This document shows, in pieces, positions 4,157 through 53,978 of a DNA stretch of 64,000 nucleotides. Numbering within the stretch: position 1 is the first letter of the stretch; each line of letters begins with the position of its first letter. The translations under genes and the position numbers were made by a program. The stretch comes from an uncultured bacterium (GTDB lineage Bacteria; UBP14; UBA6098). The notes beneath the pieces are model-generated. The model was not told the DNA's origin, did not search any database, and was given only the letters and a program-made list of their open reading frames with translations. The stretch lies in contig CAYWOR010000001.1 in assembly GCA_964459995.1 (NCBI GenBank), positions 79,496-143,495 of the forward strand, read 5' to 3'.

Positions 4157-4192
4157 GATGATGAATCTCCAGGGACGGGTTTACCGAAAATG

Positions 4193-5452: not shown

Positions 5453-5595
5453 TAATACTCCTCGAATAATTATAAAAAATAGGCCTTCACAAGGCCGATG
5501 TCAATCTATAATATTGAACCGAATGTTTCATCGGAGAGTCGCGGACACAATTTAATCTCTTGACCGTCAAGGTTCTATCTATATTTTACAAGGTT

Positions 5596-7152
5596 ATGTT
5601 AGTCGATTCGCATGCACATATCGATTTTCCGCATTTCGCCACAGACCGCGCCGAAATGATTGACCGGGCATGGGAAAGCGGTGTCCGCACGATAATAATC
5701 CCCGGCGTGGAACGCGAAAGCAATCTGCGTAGCGTGGAGATTGCGGAAAAATATCCCCATGTTTGGTTCTCCACCGGATGGCATCCCCACGACGCCGACA
5801 AACTGGACATGAGCCTTTTGTCGAGGCTCGCGGGGCATCCGAAATGTGTGGCGGTCGGCGAAATCGGTCTCGATTATTACCGCGACCTTTCCCCTCGGGA
5901 TGTTCAGGAGAAGGCTTTCCGAAAGCAAATCGAGTTTGCCGTGCATAAAAACATGCCGGTGATAATTCATATTCGGGACGCTTGGGAGGATGCGATACGC
6001 ATTCTCGGCGATTACGACTGTCTTCGCGGGGTTTTCCACGCCTTCTCGGGTGCGGAAACCGAGCTTGAGTGGGCGAAGGCGCATGGTTATTATATCGGGT
6101 TGGGCGGGCCGGTTACTTTCGACAATTTCAAAAAAGGCGATGTTGTCGCGAAAATGCCGCCGGAACATATTCTGACTGAAACCGACTGCCCCTATCTTGC
6201 GCCGCAGTCATGCAGGGGCAAGCGTAATGACCCCGCCCATATTCGTGAAATTCTCGCGAAATGCGCAGAGTTTATGAAAATCGACGAGAAAAAACTCGAA
6301 GCGCAGGTCGAAAGAAATGTCGTCGAGCTTTTTAGAATCCCTCTGCCGCAATATTCGAATCATCCTGAGGCCGCAAAAAAGTCCTTCTCTCAAAACTTCC
6401 TTACCGATAAAAACATGGCGCGTAAAATCTCGGAAACAGCGGGCGTCGCCGATGTTTGTGTCGAGATTGGCGCGGGAAACGGCGAATTGACCCGCTTTCT
6501 GAAGGAGAATTTCACCCGAATTTATGCTATCGAACCGGACTGGGATAGAATCGAGAATCTTTTTCGCGAGGTTCCCGATGCTGTGATAATCCCCAAAAAG
6601 TTGCAAGAAGTAGATTTGCGGGGCATTGAAATTTTTGAGGGGAGAAAAGTAGCGGTGGTTGGCAATCTTCCCTATGGCGAGACATCCCCGATTCTTTTCG
6701 ATTTGCTCGATAATCGGACTGCTATCCTTCGAATGACCGTAATGACTCAAAAAGAATTCGCGCAGAGGCTTTGTGCGAACCCTGGGTCGAAGGATTATGG
6801 CATACCTTCGGTGCTTTTTTCCGCCTTTTTTTCGATTATCGAGGAATTCGATATTCCGCGCAGATGTTTCAAACCTTCGCCGGATGTCGAATCGACCCTT
6901 TTGACATTAACAGGGCTCGAAAAGCCATTTATCGAGGATTATGAATTCGATGCATTTAAAAAGGTTGTGAAATCGGCCTTTGCACATCGGAGGAAAACAA
7001 TCGCAAACTCTCTTCAGCACGAACTTTCCGGCGTTGATGTAAAATTGCTTCTCGAAAAGGCTGGAATCGAGCCGTCTTCCCGCGCGGAGCAGATTCCGGT
7101 GGAAACATTCGCGAGGTTGACGCGAGCTTATATAGAAGGCGGCAAAGCCTGA
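5596..7152 (+). CDS. Fusion protein: TatD-family metal-dependent hydrolase (N-terminal) plus 16S rRNA dimethyladenosine transferase RsmA/KsgA (C-terminal)
   Basis: N-terminal MLVDSHAHIDF and GEIGLDYY TatD motifs; C-terminal KKSFSQNFLTD, VEIGAGNGELT (SAM binding), GNLPYGETSPI (NLPY catalytic motif) in one uninterrupted frame. ATG 5596 preferred over TTG 5560. Confidence 0.75.
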   Translation: MLVDSHAHIDFPHFATDRAEMIDRAWESGVRTIIIPGVERESNLRSVEIAEKYPHVWFSTGWHPHDADKLDMSLLSRLAGHPKCVAVGEIGLDYYRDLSPRDVQEKAFRKQIEFAVHKNMPVIIHIRDAWEDAIRILGDYDCLRGVFHAFSGAETELEWAKAHGYYIGLGGPVTFDNFKKGDVVAKMPPEHILTETDCPYLAPQSCRGKRNDPAHIREILAKCAEFMKIDEKKLEAQVERNVVELFRIPLPQYSNHPEAAKKSFSQNFLTDKNMARKISETAGVADVCVEIGAGNGELTRFLKENFTRIYAIEPDWDRIENLFREVPDAVIIPKKLQEVDLRGIEIFEGRKVAVVGNLPYGETSPILFDLLDNRTAILRMTVMTQKEFAQRLCANPGSKDYGIPSVLFSAFFSIIEEFDIPRRCFKPSPDVESTLLTLTGLEKPFIEDYEFDAFKKVVKSAFAHRRKTIANSLQHELSGVDVKLLLEKAGIEPSSRAEQIPVETFARLTRAYIEGGKA

Positions 7153-8354
7153 TGGAAATCATTATCGCCCTTGTAATTCCGATATTTTTAATATGGTGGA
7201 TTCTCGAATATCGCCGCCACAAGGTCAATGTCGAGAGAGTGCCTATTCGGATTCATGTCAACGGCACACGCGGGAAATCCTCAGTAACGCGGCTTATTGC
7301 GGGTGCGTTGCGGGAGGCCGGTATTAAAACTGTCGCGAAAACCACAGGAACTCTTCCGCAGTTTATTTTCGAAGACGGCACCGAGGAACCAATTGTCCGT
7401 CTCGGCCCGCCGAATATTCAGGAGCAGGTGGGGATTATACGCCGTGCCGCTAATATGGGTGTCGATGCGATCGTGCTCGAGTGTATGGCGCTTCAGCCCG
7501 ATTATCAGGAGCTTTCCGAGCGGAAGATTGTCAGAAGCACGATTGGAGTAATCACCAATGCCCGCCCCGACCATCTGGAGGTTATGGGTCCGACCGAGCT
7601 GGATGTCGCGGATGCGCTTTCTGGAACGATTCCGCCCGGAGGCATATGCTTTACCGCCGAGCGCACAAGATTCGACCGATTGCGCAAGAACGCCGAGGAA
7701 TTGAGTGCCCGAATCGTTCAATCCGACCCCGCGATTGTAACAGCTGAGGAAATGGCGGGTTTTAGCTATGTCGAGCATCGCGAAAATGTCGCGTTGGTTC
7801 TCGAGATAACAAAGCATCTCGAAATTCCCCGTGATGTTGCTTTGAGAGGTATGTATAAGGCCGCGCCCGATTTGGGTGCGCTTTTCGTGTATGAGATAGA
7901 TTTTTTCGGCAAAAGACCGGTTTTCTATAATGGTTTCGCGGCAAACGACCCGGAATCGACCTCGGCTTTATGGGGACTTCTCGGTCTCGACCCGGATAAG
8001 AACAATCCGGTTATCGTTCTCGCGAACAATCGTGCGGACAGGTCGAGCCGGACTGTTCAGCTGGCGTCGATGTTGGTAAATCAGGTCAAGGCTGATTATA
8101 TCGTTCTCGTCGGCACAAACACGAAGCTTCTTTGGGAGGAACTTGGCCGAATGGGTATGGAGATGGCCATGGTTGTGGATATGGGCGAAGAAGAGGTGGA
8201 GGATATTTTCGAGAAGTGTATGGAACTCACCCCTGGCCGAAGCAGAATAATCGGTGTCGGGAATATCGGCGGTATAGGACGTGAGCTTGTTTATTATTTC
8301 GAAGCGCGCGCCCTTCCGAAACTCCGTCACGACGACTCAGCGGACGGGGTTTGA
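7152..8354 (+). CDS. pgsB: Poly-gamma-glutamate synthase PgsB/CapB (Mur-ligase-like amide ligase)
   Basis: N-terminal TM helix then NGTRGKSSVTRL, GPPNIQEQ, ECMALQPDYQ, IGVITNARPDHLEVMGPT, NGFAANDPEST, NNRADRSSRTVQ, GVGNIGG: matches the PgsB/CapB pattern as I recall it. Start overlaps tatD-rsmA stop by 1 nt. Confidence 0.8.
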   Translation: MEIIIALVIPIFLIWWILEYRRHKVNVERVPIRIHVNGTRGKSSVTRLIAGALREAGIKTVAKTTGTLPQFIFEDGTEEPIVRLGPPNIQEQVGIIRRAANMGVDAIVLECMALQPDYQELSERKIVRSTIGVITNARPDHLEVMGPTELDVADALSGTIPPGGICFTAERTRFDRLRKNAEELSARIVQSDPAIVTAEEMAGFSYVEHRENVALVLEITKHLEIPRDVALRGMYKAAPDLGALFVYEIDFFGKRPVFYNGFAANDPESTSALWGLLGLDPDKNNPVIVLANNRADRSSRTVQLASMLVNQVKADYIVLVGTNTKLLWEELGRMGMEMAMVVDMGEEEVEDIFEKCMELTPGRSRIIGVGNIGGIGRELVYYFEARALPKLRHDDSADGV

Positions 8355-8633
8355 AGAGATGAAATTCTTGTTTTTGGATGAATCGGACGACATGGGAATA
8401 TGTCGGACAGTTGTGTTATTTTTCGTAAGGTAGATAGAGATGAGCAAGAGTCGATTCGCGGGTTCCAAGAAAAATTTTAGGAACAGACTCCTTGCGGGGG
8501 CTGACGGTTCTAGGCCAGCTGGGCGAGCTATATACCTCGTTTTCAAGGCGAGAGATTGTCTTCGCTTTTAAGTTAATTATATTAGTAAAGTGATTATGTC
8601 AATAGTAAAAATATTGATCTGTAAGGATAAACT

Positions 8634-9101
8634 ATGCTTTGGTTATCTGTTGGAATTGGATTAGCGCTCTCGCTGGTTTTCGCGGAGTGGTTCGGGCTGG
8701 CGGCGGGAGGGCTGGTGGTGCCGGGGTATATCGCCCTATTCTGGAACGACCCTATGAAGATTGTCGGCACGATTACAATCGCTATGGCGGCATTCGGCAC
8801 GGTGAAGGTCGCAAGCTCATACACGATACTCTACGGACGGAGAAAGCTCGTTCTTACTGTGCTCGTGGCCTTTGTTTATGCATGGATTTTCCGCTTCATA
8901 ATGGGTGCAGGGGCGGTTGGAGCGCTCGGTTCTTTCGACCCTATCGGGTTTATTATTCCCGGCCTTCTCGGTTATTGGATGGATAGGCAGGGTATTCTCG
9001 AAACGCTTTCCACGATGGTAATCGCCAGTGTTATTGTCCGTTTGATTCTTATTATGGTGAATGGAGGTGACCTCCTTGAAGTGGCGCTCCCGACGAGTTA
9101 G
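8634..9101 (+). CDS. pgsC: Poly-gamma-glutamate biosynthesis membrane protein PgsC/CapC
   Basis: 155 aa polytopic membrane protein; FAEWFGLAAGGLVVPGY, ILYGRRK, GFIIPGL match recalled PgsC signatures. Confidence 0.8.
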   Translation: MLWLSVGIGLALSLVFAEWFGLAAGGLVVPGYIALFWNDPMKIVGTITIAMAAFGTVKVASSYTILYGRRKLVLTVLVAFVYAWIFRFIMGAGAVGALGSFDPIGFIIPGLLGYWMDRQGILETLSTMVIASVIVRLILIMVNGGDLLEVALPTS

Positions 9102-10573: not shown

Positions 10574-11911
10574 ATGAGAAAACTTTCAAGGGCGGAAGTT
10601 GCCGCTATTAATGCTAATAATGTTCATGAGGTTTTGGGCACGGTGATGCTTGCCGACGGAATGGATATGGTTGTAGATCTCGATAAATCACAGGGGCAGA
10701 TGCTCTACGATGCAAAAGCGCAAAAGCCTTATCTCGATTTCTTCAGCTATTTCGCGAGCAATCCGATTGGCCATAATCATCCCAAAATGACAACACCGGA
10801 ATTTATCGAGCTTATGGGCAAAATCGCTGTTCATAATCCCTCGAATTCCGATCTTTATTCTGTCGAAATGGCGAAATTCGTTGCGACTTTCGCACGTGTG
10901 GCGATGCCGGAAAGTATGAATTATCTATTTTTGGTCGCTGGCGGAGGGTTAGCTGTCGAAAACGCTCTCAAGGCGGCTATGGACTGGAAAGTCCGTAAAA
11001 ATGTCGCGGCTGGCAAAGGCGAAATTGGAACAAAAGTGCTTCATTTCGAGAACTCCTTCCACGGCAGAACCGGATATACCATTTCTCTGACAAACACCGC
11101 AGATCCGCGCAAATATATGTTCTTCGCGAAATTCGATTGGCCCAGAGTTCCCGCACCCTATTGCGAGTTCCCGCTCGAAGGCGCTAATTTCGACACTACA
11201 ATCGATAGAGAAAATGTCTCGTTAGAAATGATCGAAGACATTCTAAAGAAAGACGCCGACAATATCTGCTGTATAATCATCGAGCCGATTCAGGCAGAGG
11301 GCGGCGATAATCATTTTCGTAAAGAATACCTTCTCGCGCTGAAAAATCTTTGCCTGAAGTATGACATCCTGCTGGTTTTCGACGAGGTTCAGACCGGCAT
11401 GGGTCTAACTGGCGCGATGTGGGCATGGCAGAAAATCGGTGTAGAACCGGACATCCTCAGTTTCGGGAAAAAGGCGCAGGTGTGTGGTATTATTGCAGGA
11501 TCGAGAATCGACGAGGTTGAAAAGAACGTTTTCCATGAATCGAGCAGAATCAATTCGACATGGGGCGGAAACCTTGCTGATATGGTCCGTTGCAGGAAAT
11601 ATCTCGAAATTATCGAAGAGGAAAATCTCGTCGAAAACGCCGACAAAATGGGTAAACTTCTTCTCAATGGTCTTCTCGAAATCCAGAGAAAACACCCGAA
11701 GGTGTCAAATGCCCGCGGTTCGGGGCTTATGTGCGCTTTCGATCTGCCGGATTCGTCATGCAGAAACGGTTTCATTGAAACATGCATGGAAAAAGGCATG
11801 ATGGTTCTGCCATGCGGGACAAAATCCATACGTTTCCGGCCGAGCCTGAATGTCGAAAAGGAGCATATCGAACGCGCTATCGCCATAATCGACAGCGTTC
11901 TAAGCGAATAG
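10574..11911 (+). CDS. lat: Class III aminotransferase, L-lysine 6-aminotransferase (Lat) family
   Basis: NSDLYSVEMAKFVATFARV, ENALKAAMDWKVRKN, FHGRTGYTISLTNT, EPIQAEGGDNHFR, FDEVQTGMGLTG, FGKKAQVCG (PLP lysine), STWGGNL; GGAGG RBS upstream. Confidence 0.7.
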   Translation: MRKLSRAEVAAINANNVHEVLGTVMLADGMDMVVDLDKSQGQMLYDAKAQKPYLDFFSYFASNPIGHNHPKMTTPEFIELMGKIAVHNPSNSDLYSVEMAKFVATFARVAMPESMNYLFLVAGGGLAVENALKAAMDWKVRKNVAAGKGEIGTKVLHFENSFHGRTGYTISLTNTADPRKYMFFAKFDWPRVPAPYCEFPLEGANFDTTIDRENVSLEMIEDILKKDADNICCIIIEPIQAEGGDNHFRKEYLLALKNLCLKYDILLVFDEVQTGMGLTGAMWAWQKIGVEPDILSFGKKAQVCGIIAGSRIDEVEKNVFHESSRINSTWGGNLADMVRCRKYLEIIEEENLVENADKMGKLLLNGLLEIQRKHPKVSNARGSGLMCAFDLPDSSCRNGFIETCMEKGMMVLPCGTKSIRFRPSLNVEKEHIERAIAIIDSVLSE

Positions 11912-11935
11912 CAAAACAATTAATTCGGATTACCC

Positions 11936-11967
11936 AAAAGGGCGGTTCTAATGCCGCCCTTTTTTTA
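11936..11967 (+). terminator. Rho-independent terminator after lat
   Basis: aaaagGGCGGttctaatgCCGCCCttttttt: 6-bp GC stem, 8-nt loop, 7-T run, about 25 nt after the lat stop. Confidence 0.6.
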
Positions 11968-12040
11968 ATGTTGCTTTATCAGTTCCATTAAGCTAAAATA
12001 TATTGATTTGATATTCAATATCGACACTCGGAGTTTCGGA

Positions 12041-12439
12041 ATGAAAAAAATTATCCTGCTAATCATCATCGTCGGCGGAATCTATCTGCTATATAACCAC
12101 TTCATCGCCGAACCCCGCCAACAGCTTCATGAAGAGACCGCTAATCTTTCCGAGGCCGCACTCAGAGCAAGACAAAACGAAGCTCGTCAGCTTCTGCGAA
12201 TAGCCTACCAAAAGCAACAGTCCTACCACGCTCAGCACGGTAAATACACGAAGAATCTCGACGATCTGAAAGTCCAGACTCGCGGAACCTTCTACAAACT
12301 CGAAAGCAAAAGCGCTACTTTTACAAATTTCGAGATTAGGGCTATTGGCAACATCGACAACGACGGCATTCTCGATGTTTGGGTTGTCGATCAGAATGGA
12401 AATCCGTATAATCTTGTTGACGATGTAAAGAAGAATTGA
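12041..12439 (+). CDS. Small membrane-anchored hypothetical protein (pilin-body-like, no prepilin cleavage motif)
   Basis: MKKIILLIIIVGGIYLLYNHF signal anchor; ATG 12041 with upstream GGAG; stop 9 nt before the cyclase gene. Confidence 0.4.
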   Translation: MKKIILLIIIVGGIYLLYNHFIAEPRQQLHEETANLSEAALRARQNEARQLLRIAYQKQQSYHAQHGKYTKNLDDLKVQTRGTFYKLESKSATFTNFEIRAIGNIDNDGILDVWVVDQNGNPYNLVDDVKKN

Positions 12440-12448
12440 CGATTCGAA

Positions 12449-15412
12449 ATGTCCTCGAAAGGCGACTTAGAAAAATTCGATAACCCCAAAATCGCCCGAG
12501 CGATAGCATCGTTTATTCCCAATCAGGTTCTCTCGCGCGTTGTCCGGAACCCCGAAAAACTCGATAGGGTTGGCGAAAGACGCACAGTTACCGCAATGTT
12601 CGTCGATATTGCGGGTTTCACGTCTTTCTGCGAAAACCGTGATGCCGAAGAGGTTATGCTTCTGCTAAACAGGCTTTTCTCATCGATTCTCGAACCGGTC
12701 GAAAAATTTTCCGGCGAAGTAGATAAATTCATGGGGGATGCCGCAGTCATAATTTTCGGCGCGCCGGTGGCTCATGAGGATGATCCACAAAGAGCGCTCG
12801 CCTCAGCGCTGGAAATAATGGCGCGGATTCAAGAATTTCAAGGGTTGCAGGTTTCTATCGGAATAAATACCGGCGAGGTTGTCGCGGGAATCGTCGGCAA
12901 CGACAACCACCGCGAATACACAGTCATCGGCGACGCCGTAAACACCGCTTCGAGACTCCAAAGCGCCGCCGAGGCCGGCGAAATCCTTGTCGGAAAGGAA
13001 ACTGTGCGGTTGGCAGGAAAAGGATTCCTTTTCGGCGAGGCTCGCAAGCTCGATCTCAAGGGCAAATCGCACCCGATAGAGGCTTTTCCCCTTCGTGGAA
13101 TCTCAATCGAGGAAAAAAAAACTTCATCGGACTGTATAATCGGGCGTGAAAGAGAGCTGTCGGCTGTAAATGCTGTAATCGATGGCACAGCGAAATCCGC
13201 GGCGATAATCGGACCCGCTGGAACAGGCAAAACAACCCTGATTAACCGTATCACAGACGAAGCCATCTCCAAAGGCTATCGCCTAATAGATATTTCCGCG
13301 ATAACATGGGCGGAGAATATCCCATACGCGTCGGTTCAACGCTTAGTTCGCGATATTCTCGGCGCTGACCCGCTTAAAAAACTTCGGAAACTCCTTCCAA
13401 AAAGTGCCGACCTTTTCCCACTGCTCTCAGGATTATTGGGTGCGGAAATTCCCGGAAGAGGGCGGGTGGAATATCTTTCGCCGGAAGAAAAACGAAAAGC
13501 CCTTCAGAGTTTGATTTATGAAATTCTCTCGACCGAGGGGCACAAATCCCCAATATTTCTTGTTTGCGACGGAATAGAAAATCTCGATCCCTCCACCGCG
13601 GAACTTCTCGAAATGGCAATTTCGAACCGCGAATTTCCAGTTGTTATAGCGGGCAGAAACTTCGGAGCGATTTCATCGGCTGTCGATTTTGTTGTCGAGC
13701 TGAAAGCCCTTTCCAAAAAGGATTCTAGTCCTTTGATACGCGATATTCTCGGCGCGGAAAAGATCGGTGCGAATCTTCTTTCGGCGGTTTATAACGAAAC
13801 CGGCGGCAACCCGGGCTGGATAAAAGAGCTTTTGACCCTTATCTCGGAACGGGGCGGCATAACAATCGACAAAGGCGTCCACAGGCTGTCCTCAGCTATC
13901 GAGGGCAAACTGCCGAAGGGCATCGACGGCATCTACACCGCCCGTATCGACGCTTTCCCGCCGGATGCAAGGGAGACTTTGCGCGTCCTTTCCGTGCTTG
14001 GACAGGAATTTCCGAAGGATCTCCCTGAAGAGCTTCTCGATCCATCGATTTACCGGAGCGGAGGCCGAAATCTTGTCGAAATAGGCGTTTTGAGAGACCT
14101 TGGCGAGAAATATCGTTTTGAGTCCGTGCCGCTGATGAAGGCCGCCTATCATTCGCTTTTCCAATCCGTTAGAAAAAAGCTCCATAAATCAGCCGGCGAA
14201 ACAATCGAAAAACGTTTCGCTGACAAACTCGAAGAGCGTTACGAAGAGCTTGCACGGCATTTTCGCCTCGGCGAAGACCCCCGTAAGGCTTTCGTCTATC
14301 AGAACCTCTCCGGACACAAACAGGAAAAGAGTTTCGCGAATCTTGAAGCCTTGCATTATTACAATGAGGCGTTGAGCATCGAAGACGCCGATGCCATCCG
14401 ATGGGGCATTTGGCGAGAACTTCTCGGAACTATCGAAGCCGCGGGAAGGCTGTATTGGTATTCCGGCGATTTGGAAAAGGTCGTCGAGCTGAATGAACGT
14501 GCGAAATCCCTCGCGGAGCAAACCGGCGAAACAGTGATGATCAGCGACGCCGTTAACAGAATAGCCCTCGCATTTCAGGAAATGGGGCGGTTCGACGAGG
14601 CTGGCGAGCTTTATGAGAACCTTCTCGAAATGCTCGGTTCAGTCGAGGGGCAAAAGGAGCGGCTTCTTCAGGCGATGGCGAACTACGGCACCCTTCTTTC
14701 CGACCTCGGCAAGCTCGACAAGGCACGTGCGCTTTATATACGCGGTCTCGATCTTGCCGATGCCGAAACTGTCTCGGCAGGAGCCGCAAATTTACTTGGC
14801 AACCTCGGTTGGCTCGAAGCCCGAATGGAGAATTTCGATGCCGCAGTGGAGAACCTTCAAAAAGCCGGCGAGATAGACGAAAAGCTTGGAAATCTTCGCG
14901 GGCAAGCGATTAACTTGGTGAATCTCGCGCAGATTTTCCGCGCAAGAGATATGAAAACCGAGGAAATTGAAGCCTATAATCGAGCGTATCAAATTTTTGT
15001 AAGCATCGGCGATAGACGCGGGGAAGCGCTCTGCCTATCGAATCTCGGGGACACATCGCGAGAGACTGGTGATATCGAAAAAGCGAAATCGCTTCACCGC
15101 AAAGCTCTTAAGCTTGCCACCCAATTGCGCGACAATATGCGAATTGTCGATGCAAATTTGGGCCTCGCTTTGGATTATTTTGCCGAGGGCGAGGTTAAAT
15201 CTGCCGTCCGACGCGCAAAAACTGCCCTTCATATCAGCATAGAATGTGGCGATTGGGAGGGGCAAATCGAGACCGGAATAGCGTTATTGAATTTTTATAA
15301 CTATCTTCGAGACGAAAAATCCTTTGAAAAACTGTCGAAACAACTTCGGAAAATCATAGAAAACAACAATCCGGCCGCTATTTCGCGGCTTCCAAAAAAG
15401 GAAAAAGGCTGA
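12449..15412 (+). CDS. Class III adenylate/guanylate cyclase domain fused to STAND-type P-loop NTPase and C-terminal TPR repeats
   Basis: Cyclase motifs FVDIAGFTSF, KFMGDAAVIIFGAP, GINTGEVVAGIVG, YTVIGDAVNTASRLQS; Walker A GPAGTGKTT; TPR-like C-terminal half. 987 aa. Confidence 0.8.
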   Translation: MSSKGDLEKFDNPKIARAIASFIPNQVLSRVVRNPEKLDRVGERRTVTAMFVDIAGFTSFCENRDAEEVMLLLNRLFSSILEPVEKFSGEVDKFMGDAAVIIFGAPVAHEDDPQRALASALEIMARIQEFQGLQVSIGINTGEVVAGIVGNDNHREYTVIGDAVNTASRLQSAAEAGEILVGKETVRLAGKGFLFGEARKLDLKGKSHPIEAFPLRGISIEEKKTSSDCIIGRERELSAVNAVIDGTAKSAAIIGPAGTGKTTLINRITDEAISKGYRLIDISAITWAENIPYASVQRLVRDILGADPLKKLRKLLPKSADLFPLLSGLLGAEIPGRGRVEYLSPEEKRKALQSLIYEILSTEGHKSPIFLVCDGIENLDPSTAELLEMAISNREFPVVIAGRNFGAISSAVDFVVELKALSKKDSSPLIRDILGAEKIGANLLSAVYNETGGNPGWIKELLTLISERGGITIDKGVHRLSSAIEGKLPKGIDGIYTARIDAFPPDARETLRVLSVLGQEFPKDLPEELLDPSIYRSGGRNLVEIGVLRDLGEKYRFESVPLMKAAYHSLFQSVRKKLHKSAGETIEKRFADKLEERYEELARHFRLGEDPRKAFVYQNLSGHKQEKSFANLEALHYYNEALSIEDADAIRWGIWRELLGTIEAAGRLYWYSGDLEKVVELNERAKSLAEQTGETVMISDAVNRIALAFQEMGRFDEAGELYENLLEMLGSVEGQKERLLQAMANYGTLLSDLGKLDKARALYIRGLDLADAETVSAGAANLLGNLGWLEARMENFDAAVENLQKAGEIDEKLGNLRGQAINLVNLAQIFRARDMKTEEIEAYNRAYQIFVSIGDRRGEALCLSNLGDTSRETGDIEKAKSLHRKALKLATQLRDNMRIVDANLGLALDYFAEGEVKSAVRRAKTALHISIECGDWEGQIETGIALLNFYNYLRDEKSFEKLSKQLRKIIENNNPAAISRLPKKEKG

Positions 15413-41729: not shown

Positions 41730-42632
41730 ATGCTCGAACAGACGGTAAATTATCTCAAGGAAACAGGGATCGAAGATGTAATCCAAAGCGTTAAAGGCTA
41801 TTGCCGGGCGGTTGGCGTGAAAATGCCGGAAAAGGCTGGTGTGAAATTAGAACTTGCGAGGCGCATGGTGCTTCCCAATCCCGGTCTTGACGAGTTTCAA
41901 GCACTTTCGGTGAGCGAATTGCAGGTAATAAAGCGGACGGTTCAGCGTGCAGAGGAGCTTCGCGAATATGGCGAGAGACTTGCCGCCTTCAGAGCGCTTA
42001 TCGCCGATTGCGAAAACCATGTTCCAGACCAGAAACTCAGCCTCGTAGCGAAAGACCTCGCGATGAGGTTCCAGCCGGAACTTCTTTTGGGCGATTCTCT
42101 CTCTCCTTACGCCCTCGATGCGAGGTGCGAGAATTTCGCAAATGATTATCAATCATGTTATATCGCTTTCCACAACAGTTGGCATGACGAGAAGCGCAAA
42201 AATACGGCGCGAGTCGAAAAAATCGCCACATTGGCCTTAGCACTCGATACGCTCGACACGTTGATGGGTGTGGATGTTCCGCGTCAGAATAGACGAAAGC
42301 ATGAACTTTCCGCTCTGCAGAATTTGTGTTCCTGCGAAGACCTCGGTTCACACCAAATAGGCTATGCCGCATTTTGTCCAAATTGCGGCCTTAAGTTTGG
42401 CGAGGTCTATGATTGGGTGAATCTGCCCAGATTCGAGGCCGAAGTTCGAAGACAATTGGAGGAGCATCAGGCAAAGCTCGCGCGAAGACTCGCGGACGAC
42501 CTCATTAAGCGAGTGCCGGATGACCCGCTTACCGGAATAGTCGAGGCGATTTCCGTGAGCGATTTGTCCAAGCTTCCGAACATTCTTACCGACGATGTGG
42601 TCGAAGCGCTTAGGAAGATATTAGGCAAATGA
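41730..42632 (+). CDS. Hypothetical protein (300 aa, soluble, Cys-containing)
   Basis: No recognisable family by eye; possible zinc-ribbon-like CSCED...CPNCG; 10 nt after tsaD stop. Confidence 0.45.
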   Translation: MLEQTVNYLKETGIEDVIQSVKGYCRAVGVKMPEKAGVKLELARRMVLPNPGLDEFQALSVSELQVIKRTVQRAEELREYGERLAAFRALIADCENHVPDQKLSLVAKDLAMRFQPELLLGDSLSPYALDARCENFANDYQSCYIAFHNSWHDEKRKNTARVEKIATLALALDTLDTLMGVDVPRQNRRKHELSALQNLCSCEDLGSHQIGYAAFCPNCGLKFGEVYDWVNLPRFEAEVRRQLEEHQAKLARRLADDLIKRVPDDPLTGIVEAISVSDLSKLPNILTDDVVEALRKILGK

Positions 42633-44369: not shown

Positions 44370-44906
44370 TTACATCTCTGCGGATTTGATGATTGCAATG
44401 ACCTCGCCGGGCTGTTCGGCGGAGCGAAGACGTTCGAGCGTTTCCTCGAAACGAAGAATTGTTGCGATTTTTGGCCAGAGACGGTTGTAGATCGCATCGT
44501 CGTATGTTGGAGCGACCATTATTAGAAAAAGATCGACCGGAATACCGTCGGAAGCCTCCCAATCGATTGGATAATCTGTTCGTGCGAATCCGATGGCGAT
44601 ATCGCGGACATGCTCGCTTCGGACATGCGGCACTGCGATTCCGCGCCCGAGACAGGTCGGAGCTTTGCGTTCGCGGAAGATGAGGTCATTATATAATCTA
44701 CCCTGATGCTGAATCACCTCGGAGGGCAATATCAGGTCGATAAGCTCGGCGATTATTTGCTCGCGCATATCACGCGGCGATGGAAGACAGGGCTCTTCGT
44801 CGGGGGGAGTGCATTCGATGATTTCCTGCCAAGCCATCGGTGCCTGAAGCTGAAGCCGGATATTGTCCACACCTATTATTCGCGATATTCTCGATTCCTT
44901 AGCCAT
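44370..44906 (-). CDS. ptsN: PTS EIIA type-2 domain protein (PtsN-like regulator)
   Basis: Active-site GIAVPHVR motif; start chosen at MAKESRISRIIG. Confidence 0.6.
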   Translation of the reverse strand: MAKESRISRIIGVDNIRLQLQAPMAWQEIIECTPPDEEPCLPSPRDMREQIIAELIDLILPSEVIQHQGRLYNDLIFRERKAPTCLGRGIAVPHVRSEHVRDIAIGFARTDYPIDWEASDGIPVDLFLIMVAPTYDDAIYNRLWPKIATILRFEETLERLRSAEQPGEVIAIIKSAEM

Positions 44907-46167
44907 CTTCGCTCTTAAGCCTCCGCGCAAGCATTTCGCTTGCGGTTATAAATTCGATTCCCCATTTTTCCAAATCCGGGAGGACACGTTTTATTGCAAT
45001 CAAAGTATTTGGGCGGGCATGGCCGACAATCAGGACACCGTCTTCGGATTCTCGGCTTGACATTGCAAGCTCTATGAATTTCTGCGCGATAGCCGAGGTG
45101 TCGTCAACTACATCGATGTTGCCATTTTGACAAGTTGTGGGAATACTAAAGCCTTGCATTGTCTTCATTGCGCATGTGTATGGTGTTGTTCTGCTGTCGA
45201 TGAAGAACAGGCCGGAGTCTTTTAACGCCTTGGCCACATTTTCCATTGTTTGCGCATCGGCAGTGGCTTTGCTTCCCATATGATTGTTCATTCCAACCGC
45301 GCTGGGAACCTGCTCGACAGCCTCCCGAACACGCTTTTGAATCTCCGCCGGCGGAAGTTTGATATAAACCGCCTTTGGGCCGGGGTCGTTTTTTGGGTAT
45401 GCCTCAGGCTCCATCGGCATATGCACAATCGTCTCTATACCCCTATTCGCAAGCGCTTCCGCGGATTTTTTTGTGTGTTTCTCGAAAGGAATAATCGCGG
45501 CTGTGAAAGGAATCGGAAGGTCGAGAAACCCCTTTATCAAATCGAAATCAATATCGCCGAAATCGTCGATTACAAGCGCGACAGTGCCGGTTAAAGGCTT
45601 GTCGGAAAGCTCTCTGCGAAGAGTGATTTTCCGCATCACGATATCGCCAATTCCCGCAGAAATAACAACCTCCCTGCCGTAACGTGTCTCGACCGCATCG
45701 ACAATATCTCCTCCGGCCTCGCGCCACGCCGCCTGAATAGTGTGATTCGCCATTCCAAGCGGAAAAGCTCTGCTTATATTGGCCGTGATATCGATAGCGT
45801 TGCCGCCGATTCCCCCAAGTTTCGCGCCTGTGCGAATTCTAAGCTTGTTTCGCGGCGCGCCGAGTCTCGCCAAAGCTCGATACAGCGATGTGTCGAGTAA
45901 CTCTTCGGTAGCTTCGGGGTAAATCGGCTTTCGGACAGCCGTTTCGCCATATTCTGTATGTTGAACTGCCGCAGAGTCGCCTTGCGAGGGCGGAGGCGGA
46001 GGTGGAGTCTCGGCGATAACCGTTTCTTCACGATGCGGAAGACTTTTCACGATAAAATAAACCACTCCCGTCAAAATCACCAACGCGAAAAAAATTGTTA
46101 AGCCGATACCGACTCCACGTGGTGGTGTCTTTGAGATACGTCTTTTTCTATGAAGCGTGTCCGCCAT
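44899..46167 (-). CDS. Divergent polysaccharide deacetylase family protein (YibQ-like)
   Basis: N-terminal TM anchor, Pro-rich linker, C-terminal domain with ALVIDDFG, HMPME, NNHMGS motifs. Confidence 0.6.
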   Translation of the reverse strand: MADTLHRKRRISKTPPRGVGIGLTIFFALVILTGVVYFIVKSLPHREETVIAETPPPPPPSQGDSAAVQHTEYGETAVRKPIYPEATEELLDTSLYRALARLGAPRNKLRIRTGAKLGGIGGNAIDITANISRAFPLGMANHTIQAAWREAGGDIVDAVETRYGREVVISAGIGDIVMRKITLRRELSDKPLTGTVALVIDDFGDIDFDLIKGFLDLPIPFTAAIIPFEKHTKKSAEALANRGIETIVHMPMEPEAYPKNDPGPKAVYIKLPPAEIQKRVREAVEQVPSAVGMNNHMGSKATADAQTMENVAKALKDSGLFFIDSRTTPYTCAMKTMQGFSIPTTCQNGNIDVVDDTSAIAQKFIELAMSSRESEDGVLIVGHARPNTLIAIKRVLPDLEKWGIEFITASEMLARRLKSEDG

Positions 46168-46170
46168 TCG

Positions 46171-47121
46171 TCAATTACCCGTTTCGAAATAGAAACCCAT
46201 TCCGGGATTTCTCTTGAATCCATATTTCATAACTACTTGTGCCGCAGTTTCGACCGAGCCGGAGTCTGTATCCGACCGCACAACTCCGACCGCCCGGCTC
46301 ATCGTGGCCGCAGTATCGGGCATATCCCCGAAAAAGACGACGAAACCGCCATTCGGAACCGAGTCGATAATTACATATAATAATTCAGCGGAGAGTTCTT
46401 TGTCAACCAAAGTTTCGAAATATAGCACCGAAGTCGAATCACCCGATAAGTAAATATGTTCGAGTTTGTGCGGATCGATAACCTCGAAGGCTTCACCCGA
46501 AGGCTTTTGCATCGATGTTATTATTGCGCTCGTGCCGATAAAAATAAACCATCCTGCGACGATAATAGCCAGAATTTTCGCGGCAACACGAAAAAACTTC
46601 ATCCTTCCAAGTTCACCGAAAAGGCTTAATGGTAGGAAAAAGACCGATGTGCCAGCAAAAAATGCCGCAAAAAAGAGCGCTCCGTAGATAGCCCCACCGC
46701 TTTCGAAAGCCCTTCCTGCGGCAATCAGAAAGGCGGGGCAGGGATTGAGACCGAGAATAAGCCCGAAAAGAATCGGGTGTGAAAGGAACTTTCCGCGCTT
46801 TTTGGCGGCGCAGTCATGTTCGATATGCCTTTTACGAAGGGCGTTGTAGATTATCAAAATAGCGAGGACGATATAAACCGCGCCCATCGCTGGTGTTTTG
46901 TGAGAATGATGAACATGTCCGCCAAGCGCGCCCGCAATCGCCCCAAAAGATATGTAGCCGATGAATTTGCCCGCGAGAAACCACAGAATTGTTGCGAAAT
47001 TGTTTCTAAGACGTCTTTCCTCTAAGAAGAGATAGGGCAAAATCACCGGCATGCAGGTTCCGAGGCATGACATACCAAGAGACAGCCCCAAAAAAAAGCC
47101 CTCTCCGGCGGAAGCGACCAT
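46171..47121 (-). CDS. CcdA/DsbD-like membrane protein with C-terminal soluble domain
   Basis: TM1 GMSCLGTCMPVILPY and TM4 GLNPCPAF resemble DsbD/CcdA Cys motifs; about 110-aa C-terminal extension of unknown function. Confidence 0.45.
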   Translation of the reverse strand: MVASAGEGFFLGLSLGMSCLGTCMPVILPYLFLEERRLRNNFATILWFLAGKFIGYISFGAIAGALGGHVHHSHKTPAMGAVYIVLAILIIYNALRKRHIEHDCAAKKRGKFLSHPILFGLILGLNPCPAFLIAAGRAFESGGAIYGALFFAAFFAGTSVFFLPLSLFGELGRMKFFRVAAKILAIIVAGWFIFIGTSAIITSMQKPSGEAFEVIDPHKLEHIYLSGDSTSVLYFETLVDKELSAELLYVIIDSVPNGGFVVFFGDMPDTAATMSRAVGVVRSDTDSGSVETAAQVVMKYGFKRNPGMGFYFETGN

Positions 47122-47591
47122 CAGCTATCCTTTTCCTCGGGGATGAAAATCGCGCCTGTGGGGCATATAAGAACACACGCTCCGCAACGGACACATTTTT
47201 CGGTGTCGATTACCGGCTTCGCATCGACCATCGATATTGCTTTGACCGGGCAGACTCTTGCGCATTCGCCGCAGGAGACACATTGCGCCGAATCGAGCAC
47301 GGGAAAACTCGTGATCTCGAGTTCGGAGCCGGCGGAGTCGAATTGTCCATAGACTGGATAGATAACTTTAATAGGACAAACCTTCTCGCAAACGCCGCAG
47401 GAAATGCACTTCCCCGGGTCGATAACGGCTTTTCTATTCTCCATTGTAATAGCCTTTGTTGGGCAGTGAATCGTGCATTTGCCGCAACCGATACATTTTA
47501 CGGTGTCCACTCGGTAGAACAAAACGCTTCCGACCGAAAGGGCTATTACTGCGAATAAAGCTAATATTGCGATTATAAAACGTGATTTCAT
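47121..47591 (-). CDS. Membrane-anchored ferredoxin with four 4Fe-4S cluster motifs
   Basis: N-terminal TM helix; four CxxCxxCxxxCP motifs (CIGCGKCTIHCP, CISCGVCEKVCP, CVSCGECARVCP, CVRCGACVLICP). Confidence 0.75.
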   Translation of the reverse strand: MKSRFIIAILALFAVIALSVGSVLFYRVDTVKCIGCGKCTIHCPTKAITMENRKAVIDPGKCISCGVCEKVCPIKVIYPVYGQFDSAGSELEITSFPVLDSAQCVSCGECARVCPVKAISMVDAKPVIDTEKCVRCGACVLICPTGAIFIPEEKDS

Positions 47592-47603
47592 TTTAGGCCT
47601 TTC

Positions 47604-48614
47604 TCAGCAAATCCGCGGTAGAGGGGAACCTTCGGGTTGCGCGAGTTTGCGCCTTCCGCCGGATTTTGTTTCGAGAATAACTCCTTGGCCCTTCTCGACA
47701 TGGCCGATTATACACGCGCCTTTGCCGTAGGGGCTTTTTGCGATGGAGTTTAGCAAAGCGCTTGCCGACTTTTCGGGCGCGATGAAAGCCATTCTCCCCT
47801 CGGAAGCCATGAACAGAGGGTCATAGCCAAAAAGCTCACATATATTATGAACGGTGCTTTCGATAGGAATTTCCGCTTCATCGAGGACAAATTTTGTCTG
47901 CGATTGCGAGGCGAGTTCGAGCAGAATTCCGCCGAGACCTCCTCGTGTGGGGTCCCGCATGGCATGGATTTCAGCCGAATCGATGGAGTTTTGAACCATG
48001 GATGCAAGCGGCGCGCAGTCGCTCTCTACGGGGGGGTCGGCCTTCAGATTTTCGCGCAGAGCGATTATCGAGGCGGCATGTTGTGCGATAGGGCCGTTGA
48101 CGATGATGACATCGCCCGGACGGACACTCGCCGGATCGATATTGATGTCGTCGCGAAGAATGCCGATTCCCGATGTCGTGATGTAAATGCCGTCGCCTTT
48201 ACCGCGCTGAACGACCTTCGTATCGCCGCATACGATTGCTATTTCTGCTTCGACGGCGGTTCTCGCCATAGAGCGCACGATTCGTTCGAGAAGTGCTATT
48301 TCGAGACCCTCTTCGAGAATAAATGAGGCAGAGAGCATTGCTGGTTTTGCACCGGAGGCGGATAGATCGTTCACAGTGCCGCAAATTGAGAGTTTGCCTA
48401 TATCGCCGCCGGGAAACTCGATCGGATCGATCACGAAACCGTCTGTTGTGAATGCTATTCGCGATGATGAGACGGCGCAGACCGCGGAATCATTGAGTTT
48501 CGACAGCATCGGATTATCGAAATGGCGCAGAAATAGGTCTCTGACAAGTCGCGTGGTCGCTCTTCCGCCCTCGCCGTCTATTAATCTAATTTTGTTGTGT
48601 ATGTCATTCATCAT
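47604..48614 (-). CDS. hypE: Hydrogenase maturation protein HypE (PurM-like superfamily)
   Basis: Close match along its length to recalled E. coli HypE (FTTDGFVIDP, GGDIGKLSICGT, GDTKVVQRG, RDPTRGG) and the diagnostic C-terminal PRIC. Confidence 0.8.
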   Translation of the reverse strand: MMNDIHNKIRLIDGEGGRATTRLVRDLFLRHFDNPMLSKLNDSAVCAVSSSRIAFTTDGFVIDPIEFPGGDIGKLSICGTVNDLSASGAKPAMLSASFILEEGLEIALLERIVRSMARTAVEAEIAIVCGDTKVVQRGKGDGIYITTSGIGILRDDINIDPASVRPGDVIIVNGPIAQHAASIIALRENLKADPPVESDCAPLASMVQNSIDSAEIHAMRDPTRGGLGGILLELASQSQTKFVLDEAEIPIESTVHNICELFGYDPLFMASEGRMAFIAPEKSASALLNSIAKSPYGKGACIIGHVEKGQGVILETKSGGRRKLAQPEGSPLPRIC

Positions 48615-48743
48615 ATTAAGTAAACTTATGAATATAACTAATACCTATCAATATGTCAACCCCCGAGAAAGAATCGATTTCTGCTGAAAGGACTTGTCCT
48701 GCGCCAATGGAGTGTTATATTTAAAAAACATTGAGGAGAAGAT

Positions 48744-49612: not shown

Positions 49613-50281
49613 TTAATCGTCGAGGAATTTCGTCACCTCACCGCCAGGGATTGGACGGCGTTTGCCCGTGTTGATATCGAGCACATTTCCGGGCAGAATT
49701 TCGGCTGTGTCGGTATAACCGCGTTTTTCCCAGTATCCCGGGACATAGTTATCCATAAGTTCAATTTTGACAACGCTTTTTGCGGATTTATATCCCCACA
49801 GATAGGGCACGAACGCTCTAACTGGACCACCGTAATCCTCGGTTAAAAACTCGCCGTCGAATTCCCATGCCAAAAGGGTTCGCTCCATCCGTGCGATTTC
49901 CACAGGGATACTTGTGTCATAGATTTTGCCATGCGACCAAAAGCGCACAAATTGAACCTTCGGCGATGCACCGACAGCATCGAGTATGTCCGACAGCCTC
50001 ACGCCGCCCCAAATCCCCCCGACCGACCATCTGGTAACGCTTGTCAATCTTGCATTTGCAAGGCTTTTCGGCATTTTTTGAAGGTCTTGCCATGTCAGGA
50101 CGCTCGGTTTGTCGCAAAGCCCCGCGATTTCTATCTTCCAATTCTCTTTAACCAATTTCCCCGGATGGCCCTCTGTCCAGAAAACTGGGGTGTCCATATC
50201 GCTAAGTTTATCTAATCCCATTCTTCGTTCCTTTCCTGATCGATACAGGCTGTCTGCGACAAATTGCGAGAAAAAAAACAC
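49613..50281 (-). CDS. Molybdopterin-dependent oxidoreductase, sulfite-oxidase family (YuiH/MsrP-like); start uncertain
   Basis: Oxidoreductase molybdopterin-binding domain features (WSVGGIWGGVRL, GGPVRAFVPYLWGYKSAK); alternative start MGLDKL at 50221. Confidence 0.5.
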   Translation of the reverse strand: MFFFSQFVADSLYRSGKERRMGLDKLSDMDTPVFWTEGHPGKLVKENWKIEIAGLCDKPSVLTWQDLQKMPKSLANARLTSVTRWSVGGIWGGVRLSDILDAVGASPKVQFVRFWSHGKIYDTSIPVEIARMERTLLAWEFDGEFLTEDYGGPVRAFVPYLWGYKSAKSVVKIELMDNYVPGYWEKRGYTDTAEILPGNVLDINTGKRRPIPGGEVTKFLDD

Positions 50282-52862: not shown

Positions 52863-52891
52863 GAATATTCATCGTCGAAGAATATTTTTTT
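52863..52891 (+). terminator. Weak AT-rich hairpin plus T-run after ispE
   Basis: gaatattc-atcgtcgaa-gaatatt followed by ttttt; stem almost entirely A:T, so low confidence. Confidence 0.25.
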
Positions 52892-52897
52892 GAACGA

Positions 52898-52968
52898 TGG
52901 GGTGTCGGCAAGCGGCAAGCCAACGGGCTTTGGACCCGTCATCGGAGGTTCGAATCCTCCCACCCCAG
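52898..52968 (+). tRNA. tRNA-Gln (anticodon UUG)
   Basis: Hand-folded cloverleaf: acceptor TGGGGTG/CACCCCA, D-stem GGC/GCC, anticodon stem ACGGG/CCCGT with loop CTTTGGA (anticodon TTG), T-arm GGAGG-TTCGAAT-CCTCC, discriminator G; resembles E. coli tRNA-Gln. CCA not encoded. Confidence 0.8.
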
Positions 52969-52994
52969 TAAATTTTACAAAACTCGAGGTTGAA

Positions 52995-53978
52995 GTGAAA
53001 AACCTGAAGCTCATCATCGGAAGAGCTAACCCAAATCTTGGGCTTGATATCGCCCACCGCCTTGGAATAGAGCCTTGCAGGACACTCATTACCAATTTTA
53101 ACGACGGTGAGATTAGGTTCAAAATCGAGGAAAACATCCGCGGCATGGATGTTTTTATAATACAGCCGACCGTTCCGCCCGCCGATAATCTACTCGAGTT
53201 GTTGATTATGATAGACGCCGCCAAACGTGCCAGTGCAAACAGGGTAACAGCGGTAATTCCCTATTACGGCTACGCGCGTCAGGACAGAAAAGACGAGCCG
53301 AGGGTGGCGATTTCCTCGAAGCTTATCGCCAACCTTATCGTTAGCGCCGGCGCCGACAGAGTTCTTACGATGGACCTTCACGCACCCCAGATACAGGGCT
53401 TCTTTGATGTTCCCACCGACCAGCTCGTTTCGGACTTGCTTTTTAAAAGGCATATCATGAAGGAAATCCTTCCGAGTATCGGCGAAACCGACCGTAAGAA
53501 AGTTGTCATTGTAAGCCCCGATATTGGCGGAGTGAAAAGGGTCGAGACGATCGCAAAAAGGCTCGATATCGAGATTGCGGCCATATATAAGCGGAGGAAA
53601 TTGGGCACTCTTCAGCCGGAAGCCCTAAAAATAGTTGGCGATGTCAAAGGAAAAACAGCGATTCTTCTCGACGATATAATCGACACCGCAGGAACAATGC
53701 GTGAAGCATGCCGCCTTCTCATAAAAGAGGGCGCCGAGAGAATTTTCATCTGTGCAACGCACCCACTTCTCTCTGGTCCGGCGATGGAGCGGCTCGACGA
53801 CACACCGATGGACTCTCTGACGGTTACGGATTCCATCCCGATTCCGGAAGAAAAAAGAAGAAATTATATAAAAATTATTCCAACCGGCAGTTTTTTTGCT
53901 ATGGCAATTCATAATATTCATTTCGAAAAATCCGTGGCTGTTTTACTCGACGATAAAGCCTCGGCAGAATTGTGGTAA
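52995..53978 (+). CDS. prs: Ribose-phosphate pyrophosphokinase (PRPP synthetase)
   Basis: Strong match to recalled Prs (GEIRFKIEENIRGMDVFIIQ, VIPYYGYARQDRK, LHAPQIQGFFD, DDIIDTAGT); GTG start at 52995 chosen because the longer ORF (TTG 52890) would read through the tRNA. Confidence 0.85.
   Translation: MKNLKLIIGRANPNLGLDIAHRLGIEPCRTLITNFNDGEIRFKIEENIRGMDVFIIQPTVPPADNLLELLIMIDAAKRASANRVTAVIPYYGYARQDRKDEPRVAISSKLIANLIVSAGADRVLTMDLHAPQIQGFFDVPTDQLVSDLLFKRHIMKEILPSIGETDRKKVVIVSPDIGGVKRVETIAKRLDIEIAAIYKRRKLGTLQPEALKIVGDVKGKTAILLDDIIDTAGTMREACRLLIKEGAERIFICATHPLLSGPAMERLDDTPMDSLTVTDSIPIPEEKRRNYIKIIPTGSFFAMAIHNIHFEKSVAVLLDDKASAELW

Follow-up and report, generated by a model that had tools for sequence, protein, structure and literature searches.

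A hypE gene apart from other hyp genes heads a conserved envelope operon in UBP14 and Zixibacteria

The window analyzed here is a 64,000-nucleotide stretch of DNA from an uncultured bacterium of the lineage UBP14 UBA6098 (assembly GCA_964459995.1, contig CAYWOR010000001.1, positions 79,496 to 143,495). Positions 44370-48614 of the window contain five open reading frames, all located on the minus strand and arranged head to tail with tight packing. The promoter-proximal gene, hypE (47604-48614), encodes a protein of 336 residues that ends in PRIC, a predicted ATP-dependent dehydratase of the PurM superfamily. It is followed by fdx (47121-47591), which encodes a ferredoxin-like protein of 156 residues with an N-terminal signal or anchor segment and two tandem 2x[4Fe-4S] domains, and by dsbD_2 (46171-47121), which encodes a DsbD_2/TauE-like six-helix membrane protein of 316 residues (PF13386). 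The fourth gene (44899-46167) is yibQ/sddA-like and encodes a divergent polysaccharide (peptidoglycan) deacetylase of 422 residues (PF04748), and the last gene (44370-44906) encodes a PtsN-like EIIA-2 protein of 178 residues, counted from an ATG at 44906, with a PF00359 domain and a GIAVPH motif.

The hypE stop codon and the fdx start codon are separated by 12 nucleotides, fdx and dsbD_2 overlap by one nucleotide (TGATG), dsbD_2 and yibQ are three nucleotides apart, and yibQ and the EIIA gene overlap by eight nucleotides when the latter starts at 44906. The spacings within the operon thus range from about -8 to +12 nucleotides. A first-pass annotation of this DNA, made from the sequence alone, had described the 12-nucleotide gap, the four 4Fe-4S motifs of the ferredoxin, the one-nucleotide overlap and a CcdA/DsbD-like protein with an extra C-terminal domain, and all of these were confirmed. 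The longest reading frame for the EIIA protein (44370-44930) begins at a TTG (44930), but the orthologues have the N-terminus MAKxxKISRI and gene calls of 178 residues, and the ATG at 44906 was therefore taken as the start. For fdx, gene callers give a product of 107 residues. As this would remove the first cluster motif, the reading with 156 residues is the plausible one.

A sigma-70-like promoter, TTGACA-17-TATATT, is located at 48631-48659 on the minus strand. It has 11 of 12 matches and ends 17 nucleotides before the hypE start codon. A possible internal promoter with the same number of matches, TTGACA-18-TATTAT (46377-46406, minus strand), is found in the 3' end of dsbD_2 approximately 210 nucleotides upstream of yibQ, and may be a chance match.

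In the maturation of [NiFe] hydrogenases, HypF places a carbamoyl group on the C-terminal cysteine of HypE. HypE dehydrates the carbamoyl group to thiocyanate using ATP, and hands the cyanide to the HypC-HypD iron scaffold. The protein encoded at 47604-48614 was found to score 391.4 bits against the HypE equivalog model TIGR02124 (cutoff 251.6), while the models of the paralogous proteins ThiL, SelD, PurM and PurL scored far below their cutoffs, the runner-up being ThiL with 79.5 bits (cutoff 184). This agrees with the first-pass annotation, which had recognized the HypE signature including the C-terminal PRIC in this reading frame and had proposed that profile hidden Markov models be used to separate HypE from other PurM-like proteins. 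Both domains of the family were present (AIRS, PF00586, 71.5 bits; AIRS_C, PF02769, 80.3 bits). Matches to structurally characterised HypE proteins ranged from 224 to 283 bits, with 283 bits for HypE of Desulfovibrio vulgaris (2Z1T) and 261 bits for HypE of Escherichia coli (2I6R).

No hyp or hydrogenase domain was found in the rest of the 64-kb window, neither by Pfam scans nor by tblastn with HypA, HypB, HypC, HypD, HypF and HycI, in agreement with the previous statement that hypC, hypD, hypF and hydrogenase structural genes are absent from it. The 10 kb past the right edge of the window were also found to be devoid of hyp and hydrogenase genes, and contained only giant secreted proteins of the type IX secretion system (T9SS) type. 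The remaining genes of the window are those for exopolysaccharide and capsule functions, gyrA, recD2, ftsEX, tsaD, kdsB, ispE, prs and similar.

A search for homologues of the window HypE returned a tight group of proteins (P0001-P0017; 57-99% identity), followed by a step down to approximately 50% identity for HypE proteins from Deltaproteobacteria, Nitrospirota, Brocadiaceae and other taxa. When 1.8 billion representatives (50% clustering) were searched exhaustively, this group, hereafter referred to as the clade, was a single cluster with 443 bits, and the next match had 313 bits. HypE proteins identical to that of the window are encoded on metagenomic contigs, the longest of which has 510 kb, and the nearest named relatives were assigned to "candidate division Zixibacteria". 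T9SS sorting domains are encoded in the window and in related loci, which fits an organism of the FCB group.

Gene neighbourhoods were obtained for seven distinct lineages of the clade, given here with their HypE identity to the window: the window itself (loci L001-L005), L006 (74%), L022 (67%), L007 (60%; GCA_023145965.1), the UBP14 UBA6098 loci L009, L020 and L021 (61%), L024 (59%) and L008 (57%). They span Zixibacteria, UBP14 and metagenome-assembled genomes of FCB type, with HypE identities of 57-100%. The gene order hypE-fdx-(dsbD_2)-yibQ-EIIA was conserved, with fdx, yibQ and the EIIA gene located in this order downstream of hypE in all seven lineages. dsbD_2 was present in five lineages and missing in two. 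The distance between hypE and fdx was 5-16 nucleotides in four of the seven lineages. A GTTGAC(A/T)-spacer-TAnnnT element was found directly upstream of hypE in every lineage. Neither HypA, HypB, HypC, HypD, HypF nor HycI was encoded within the approximately 10 kb available on each side of hypE in any of the seven lineages. The flanking genes were common to the window, L006 and L022 only, and the block was found in at least four flanking contexts. Because only three of the seven lineages share flanks, the genes of the block must have been moved, or kept, together.

Two lineages deviated in the composition of the block. In L008 a gene for a membrane protein of 307 residues with a weak GGDEF domain (10978-11901; 31 bits) is located between hypE and fdx. 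L008 also lacks dsbD_2, and loss of the first domain has left its ferredoxin with one dicluster domain. In L024 dsbD_2 is frameshifted into two overlapping reading frames of 131 and 295 residues (11528-12537), which represents either an assembly frameshift error or a pseudogene.

As controls we used 90 other HypE loci with 38-52% identity to the window protein. A scan of genome contigs with the single window HypE relied on very specific peptides and gave only 11 loci, of which one belonged to the clade. A metagenome scan with the clade alignment was dominated by the pattern MRDPTRGG, which is common to all HypE proteins, and gave one new clade locus and 79 control loci. Upstream sequence of 1.3 kb or more was available for 67 controls, and in 62 of these hypD was located within 1 kb upstream of hypE on the same strand, usually with hypC and hypF ahead of it. 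Relatives of DsbD_2, YibQ or EIIA were found in none of the 48 controls with at least 3 kb of downstream sequence. The nearest canonical relative examined (P0020, 52% identity) is encoded in a textbook hycI-hypABFCDE operon. The dichotomy between the clade and the control neighbourhoods is thus complete. Canonical HypE, encoded in hypFCDE or hypABFCDE operons of E. coli, Thermococcus kodakarensis and D. vulgaris, shares the two-domain PurM fold family and the identical PRIC tail with the clade protein, but has hypD, hypC and hypF as gene neighbours, whereas hypE of the clade is promoter-proximal in a non-hyp operon. Association with hypD, hypC or hypF is a typical rather than a defining feature of the HypE family, and was seen in none of the seven clade lineages.

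These neighbourhoods bear on whether the window simply contains an ordinary, scattered hypE with accidental neighbours. Scattered hypE genes do exist outside the clade, since five of the 67 controls lacked an adjacent hypD. However, the order of the operon recurs in seven lineages with different flanks and was seen in 0 of 48 controls, which refutes an accidental neighbourhood, and we regard this explanation as very improbable. The first-pass annotation had asked for the conservation of the operon in related genomes to be determined and had held that a gene order without conservation, together with a hyp cluster elsewhere, would make this an ordinary scattered hypE; on gene-order conservation that description is ruled out. 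Canonical-type hypE genes without adjacent hypD, 43-46% identical to that of the window, were found in L042, L033, L063 and L083. In L042 the gene (3355-4356) is located between a peptidase S9 gene and genes for UbiA, arabinofuranosidase-like and AP_endonuc_2 proteins.

The dsbD_2 product scored 76.3 bits against PF13386 (cutoff 24.9), and its AlphaFold2 model contained six long helices. A search for homologues returned 12 DsbD_2 proteins, and close relatives carry the NCBI name "sulfite exporter TauE/SafE family protein". Three cysteines were invariant in the 12 sequences: Cys19 and Cys23 form a CxxxC motif in the first transmembrane helix, and Cys128 is part of an NPCP motif in the fourth. 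They are candidates for the redox cysteine pair of CcdA/DsbD-type thiol-disulfide transporters. Cys104, located in loop 3, was nearly invariant; this loop is cytoplasmic by the inferred topology. The protein has an extra C-terminal region of approximately 115 residues that is free of cysteines and was modelled with a pLDDT (predicted local distance difference test) of approximately 30-40. This region was found only in eight close relatives (56-83% identity), one of which is assigned to Zixibacteria. The positive-inside rule predicts an N-out/C-out topology with both termini and the C-terminal domain in the periplasm. With CcdA/DsbD and the DsbD_2/TauE-SafE-like group the clade protein shares the six-helix core, the invariant cysteine in the first helix and the PC motif in the fourth. 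It differs from CcdA/DsbD by the CxxxC motif in the first helix, the extra loop cysteine, the lineage-specific C-terminal domain and the lack of a thioredoxin-like partner domain. An HVHHSH loop raised the possibility of a nickel transporter, which was rejected as the His-rich loop is not kept in orthologues.

The ferredoxin-like protein has four CxxCxxCxxxCP motifs starting at Cys33, Cys62, Cys104 and Cys133, and Pfam Fer4 matched four stretches of it. Its best matches in the PDB were MvhB and FwdF, polyferredoxins associated with hydrogenase and formylmethanofuran dehydrogenase. The likeness to these proteins does not extend beyond the generic 2x[4Fe-4S] (dicluster) domain. The N-terminus carries a hydrophobic segment with positive charges before rather than after it. 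Putative signals of Sec or lipoprotein type were present in the window protein (47121-47591) and in its orthologues from L006 (11024-11512), L007 (11116-11757), L008 (11907-12323), L009 (10989-11609) and L024 (approximately 11016-11597). The L006 protein has an AxA cleavage site, and that of L008 a lipobox (VAGC), behind which the sequence continues as a long linker of low complexity. A Gln follows directly after the likely cleavage site (+1) in three orthologues. Since the Q-rule of Bacteroidetes was reported not to be valid across the whole FCB group (PMC5837995), this is weak support for signal cleavage. By inspection no twin arginine, as in a Tat signal, was found in the N-termini MKSRF, MKKQ, MYKKY, MNRKS, MKT and MKKAL. 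In L007, L009, L022 and L024 the two dicluster domains are split by a variable low-complexity linker of 60-90 residues.

By the positive-inside rule the iron-sulfur (Fe-S) domain is predicted to be located outside the cytoplasm. This orientation is the reverse of that in RnfB-type anchors, where the charges are opposite and the anchor is cytoplasmic. The protein was originally described as a membrane-anchored ferredoxin. A hydrophobic N-terminal segment is present, but the Sec and lipoprotein signals make the protein look exported or outward-facing rather than like a cytoplasmic ferredoxin anchored in the membrane. Where complete [4Fe-4S] motifs are combined with a Sec or lipoprotein signal and a twin arginine is lacking, it may be asked by what means, if at all, the clusters are acquired outside the cytoplasm, as no route is known by which an Fe-S protein exported without Tat obtains its clusters. 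A polyferredoxin with a signal peptide is a truly odd side observation of this operon.

The proximity of fdx and hypE could mean that the operon is coupled to hydrogenase maturation, with the ferredoxin, with or without DsbD_2, supplying the electrons or the thiol relay that moves cyanide from HypE-thiocyanate to the iron of HypCD. Transfer of cyanide from thiocyanate is a two-electron reduction. HypD contains a ferredoxin:thioredoxin-reductase-like [4Fe-4S]/disulfide cascade that has no known electron donor. The two genes are in the same operon in all lineages and 5-16 nucleotides apart in four of seven, all four [4Fe-4S] motifs of the ferredoxin are complete and its best solved relatives are MvhB and FwdF, and DsbD_2 offers the invariant Cys19, Cys23 and Cys128 and the nearly invariant Cys104 in a cytoplasmic loop. 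There is also a precedent in the hydN-hypF operon of E. coli, where a polyferredoxin gene is co-transcribed with hypF, as Maier, Binder and Boeck reportedly found in 1996. Both operons combine a ferredoxin with four [4Fe-4S] motifs and one of the two enzymes of cyanide ligand synthesis (HypF or HypE). The partner is hypF in one case and hypE in the other, and HydN is a cytoplasmic protein of HycB/NrfC type, whereas the protein described here has two tandem clostridial-type dicluster domains behind a signal-like N-terminus. The Sec-like N-termini with charges before the hydrophobic segment would place the Fe-S domain and HypE on opposite sides of the membrane. Furthermore, DsbD_2 is missing in two of seven lineages, the L008 ferredoxin lacks the first domain, and the likeness to MvhB extends to the generic dicluster domain only. 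We regard a coupling of the operon to maturation as the main rival to the explanation favoured below, but as rather unlikely. If the ferredoxin or DsbD_2 were linked to HypE, this would bear on the electron source for the transfer of cyanide to the HypCD iron.

The YibQ-type protein scored 207 bits against PF04748 and could be aligned to BH1492 of Bacillus halodurans (2NLY), with matching IDDFG, VHMP and NNHMG motifs. The residues of the Asp-Asp-His-His metal site have been described for this family (bioRxiv 10.1101/2025.02.18.638797), and the window protein has the matching motifs. The protein is anchored to the membrane at its N-terminus, has a Pro-rich linker of approximately 190 residues ahead of the domain, and is predicted to be extracytoplasmic. 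E. coli YibQ, renamed SddA, acts in the periplasm, where it deacetylates denuded glycan strands of peptidoglycan (bioRxiv 10.1101/2025.02.18.638797). The previous assignment to the YibQ-type deacetylases can thus be kept, and a function has now been demonstrated for the E. coli protein as SddA. SddA is tied to the FtsEX-EnvC pathway of amidase activation, and its gene is located in the envC operon (bioRxiv 10.1101/2025.02.18.638797). The clade protein has the PF04748 domain and the metal-site motifs in common with E. coli SddA. In contrast to sddA, yibQ of the clade does not adjoin envC, and its product is membrane-anchored with a long linker. Neither the operon nor the examined loci contained a homologue of envC (M23). 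ftsEX adjoins yibQ convergently in three lineages.

The EIIA protein scored 90 bits against PF00359 and 55 bits against the PtsN equivalog TIGR01419, which is below the cutoff of 138.7. Its earlier description as a PtsN-like EIIA therefore holds for the EIIA_2 domain and not for the PtsN equivalog, and the protein may be considered a generic EIIA-2 that is only loosely PtsN-like. It has the EIIA-2 fold family in common with PtsN (EIIA-Ntr), and its GIAVPH motif resembles the phosphorylation-site motif. In contrast to ptsN, the gene is located outside any rpoN operon.

We compared the clade HypE with 103 canonical HypE proteins. Among the 95 columns that were at least 90% conserved in the latter, 87 were kept in the clade, and the eight changed columns were either conservative or at sites that vary among other HypE proteins. 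The C-terminus ...PLPRIC was invariant in 16 of 16 aligned clade members. The clade has the N-terminal motif IDGEGGRAT where canonical proteins have (A/S)HGSGG, and the C-terminus PEG(A/S)PLPRIC where they have SGEQLPRIC. We considered DGEGG and PEG(A/S)PLPRIC as a sign of a functional shift and rejected it, as identical variants are found in canonical and even crystallised HypE proteins. The crystallised HypE from D. vulgaris has DYGSGGRAS at the N-terminal motif, and among representatives HGxGG has S, G, A, N, D or E at its variable position; HGEGG is thus found, and a few proteins have DGEGG. Tails of the E. coli type, EPLPRIC, are common among HypE representatives. The clade was monophyletic in a neighbour-joining tree, where its stem branch was 0.063, compared to 0.156 for the 95th percentile of internal branches. 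The median identity of the clade to canonical HypE proteins was 47%, and that of the canonical proteins among themselves 52%. The conserved columns and PRIC, the short stem and motifs that fall in the normal variation show no trace of accelerated change of the kind expected after a functional switch. The cysteine tail, which serves to be carbamoylated by HypF, is intact. Everything in the sequence points to the clade protein being an ordinary, genuine HypE.

This conservation weighs on the proposal that the HypE clade acts outside hydrogenase maturation, with the chemistry of the C-terminal cysteine (dehydration of a thiocarboxamide with ATP, or a different activated-thiol reaction) serving the ferredoxin, DsbD_2 or the envelope, perhaps without HypF or [NiFe] hydrogenases. 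In all seven lineages hypE is completely uncoupled from hypFCD and always linked to one set of non-hyp genes, the clade is a discrete cluster separated from other HypE proteins by a gap of 130 bits among the 1.8 billion representatives, and approximately 74 kb around the window hypE contain no hyp or hydrogenase gene. However, signs of neofunctionalisation are lacking, given the 87 of 95 columns and the PRIC that are kept, the short stem and the motif changes that lie in the canonical variation. No alternative carbamoyl donor is encoded nearby, HypE has no known substrate without HypF, and cyanide or thiocyanate is not known to be used in any process of the envelope. In addition, a Zixibacteria genome, RBG-1, is reported to contain an MvhADG/HdrABC [NiFe] hydrogenase with an "associated maturation system" (PMC3903129). 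Hydrogenases thus occur in the phylum Zixibacteria. HypD from L023, the nearest canonical locus, matched only Deltaproteobacteria, Nitrospirota and Planctomycetota and no Zixibacteria in a database of 5.8 billion proteins. We consider a function outside hydrogenase maturation improbable, and the suggestion of the first-pass annotation that HypE-like carbamoyl or cyanide chemistry is used in this way found no positive support. We are equally doubtful about a more specific version, in which HypE, the exported polyferredoxin and DsbD_2 were recruited to a hydrogenase-independent pathway where ATP-driven chemistry of the C-terminal cysteine, involving thiocyanate, cyanide or a different activated thiol, would feed a thiol relay across the membrane, and this relay would mature or service a metalloprotein of the envelope outside the cytoplasm.

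With moderate confidence we favour the explanation that the clade protein is a genuine HypE for cyanide ligand synthesis, which serves hydrogenases encoded elsewhere and became fixed at the head of an envelope operon. Three or four of the five operon products are envelope proteins, with HypE as the exception. In a common ancestor of Zixibacteria, UBP14 and some FCB-type bacteria, hypE would have become detached from hypD and then landed between the promoter and the envelope operon as the promoter-proximal gene. The protein would keep its normal job, with Cys336 of PRIC being carbamoylated by HypF, the carbamoyl group dehydrated to thiocyanate and the cyanide passed on to HypC-HypD. The genes downstream would encode a Sec-exported polyferredoxin-like protein, a thiol- or transport-type protein of the DsbD_2 family, an SddA/YibQ deacetylase and an EIIA(Ntr)-like regulator. 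The block may be held together because the downstream genes rely on the promoter ahead of hypE and on translational packing, and a shared pathway would not be needed. The hydrogenase and hypFCD genes would be expected elsewhere in the genome. The data show the family of each protein, the close packing of the genes, the position of the promoter and the conservation of the block throughout the clade. From these we infer that HypE still takes part in hydrogenase maturation, that this is the sole hypE of the genome, and that its linkage to the operon is architectural and not mechanistic.

Several points weigh against this explanation. The role of HypE is deduced from sequence conservation and from a report on a different Zixibacteria genome, and a purely architectural linkage is argued from the absence of a known connection. 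The occurrence of the block in at least four contexts, with HypE proteins just 57-61% identical to that of the window, would also be expected from functional coupling. Moreover, it is easy to conceive of a role for a ferredoxin beside hypE, as HypE-thiocyanate gives up its cyanide in a reductive step and HypD contains a ferredoxin:thioredoxin-reductase-like cascade.

The conserved operon headed by hypE puts a well-known maturation gene in a genomic setting of which we found no earlier description, and its biological consequence is most likely modest. The relocation of hypE is curious and probably harmless, with no sign of new chemistry. If so, annotators should be warned that hypE in Zixibacteria- and UBP14-type genomes is not located beside hypD, and the conserved five-gene operon could be used as a lineage marker; the practical value of both is small but real. 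A literature search on orphan hypE genes returned nothing relevant.

Some further observations were made in the window and in related loci. A small protein of 222 residues with an Oxidored_molyb domain (sulfite-oxidase/MsrP-type; window 49613-50281) is conserved close to the operon in L006 and L022 as well as in the window, and no adjacent MsrQ-like gene was noticed. Just past ftsEX, the closest relatives L006 (16279-19070) and L022 (16853-17816) have an oxidative-stress cluster of FUR, peroxiredoxin, desulfoferrodoxin, ferritin and rubrerythrin genes, which is consistent with an anaerobic lifestyle. A protein of 300 residues encoded between tsaD and ftsE in the window (41730-42632) matched only the last approximately 170 of the 1238 positions of the DUF6079 profile (35 bits). 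At 5560-7152 a single reading frame of 530 residues fuses a TatD-type DNase (241 bits) to a KsgA/RrnaAD rRNA adenine dimethylase (146 bits). A Mur_ligase_M protein and, after it, a CapC homologue (7152-9101) look like a CapB/CapC pair for poly-gamma-glutamate synthesis. The gene at 12449-15412 encodes a protein of 987 residues with an adenylate/guanylate cyclase domain, an AAA_16 STAND-type NTPase and TPR repeats. Finally, the longest reading frame for prs (ribose-phosphate pyrophosphokinase; 52890-53978) and a tRNA-Gln(TTG) gene (52898-52968) share a strand and overlap, and the true start of prs is probably the downstream one, as in the 327-residue call in L002-L004.

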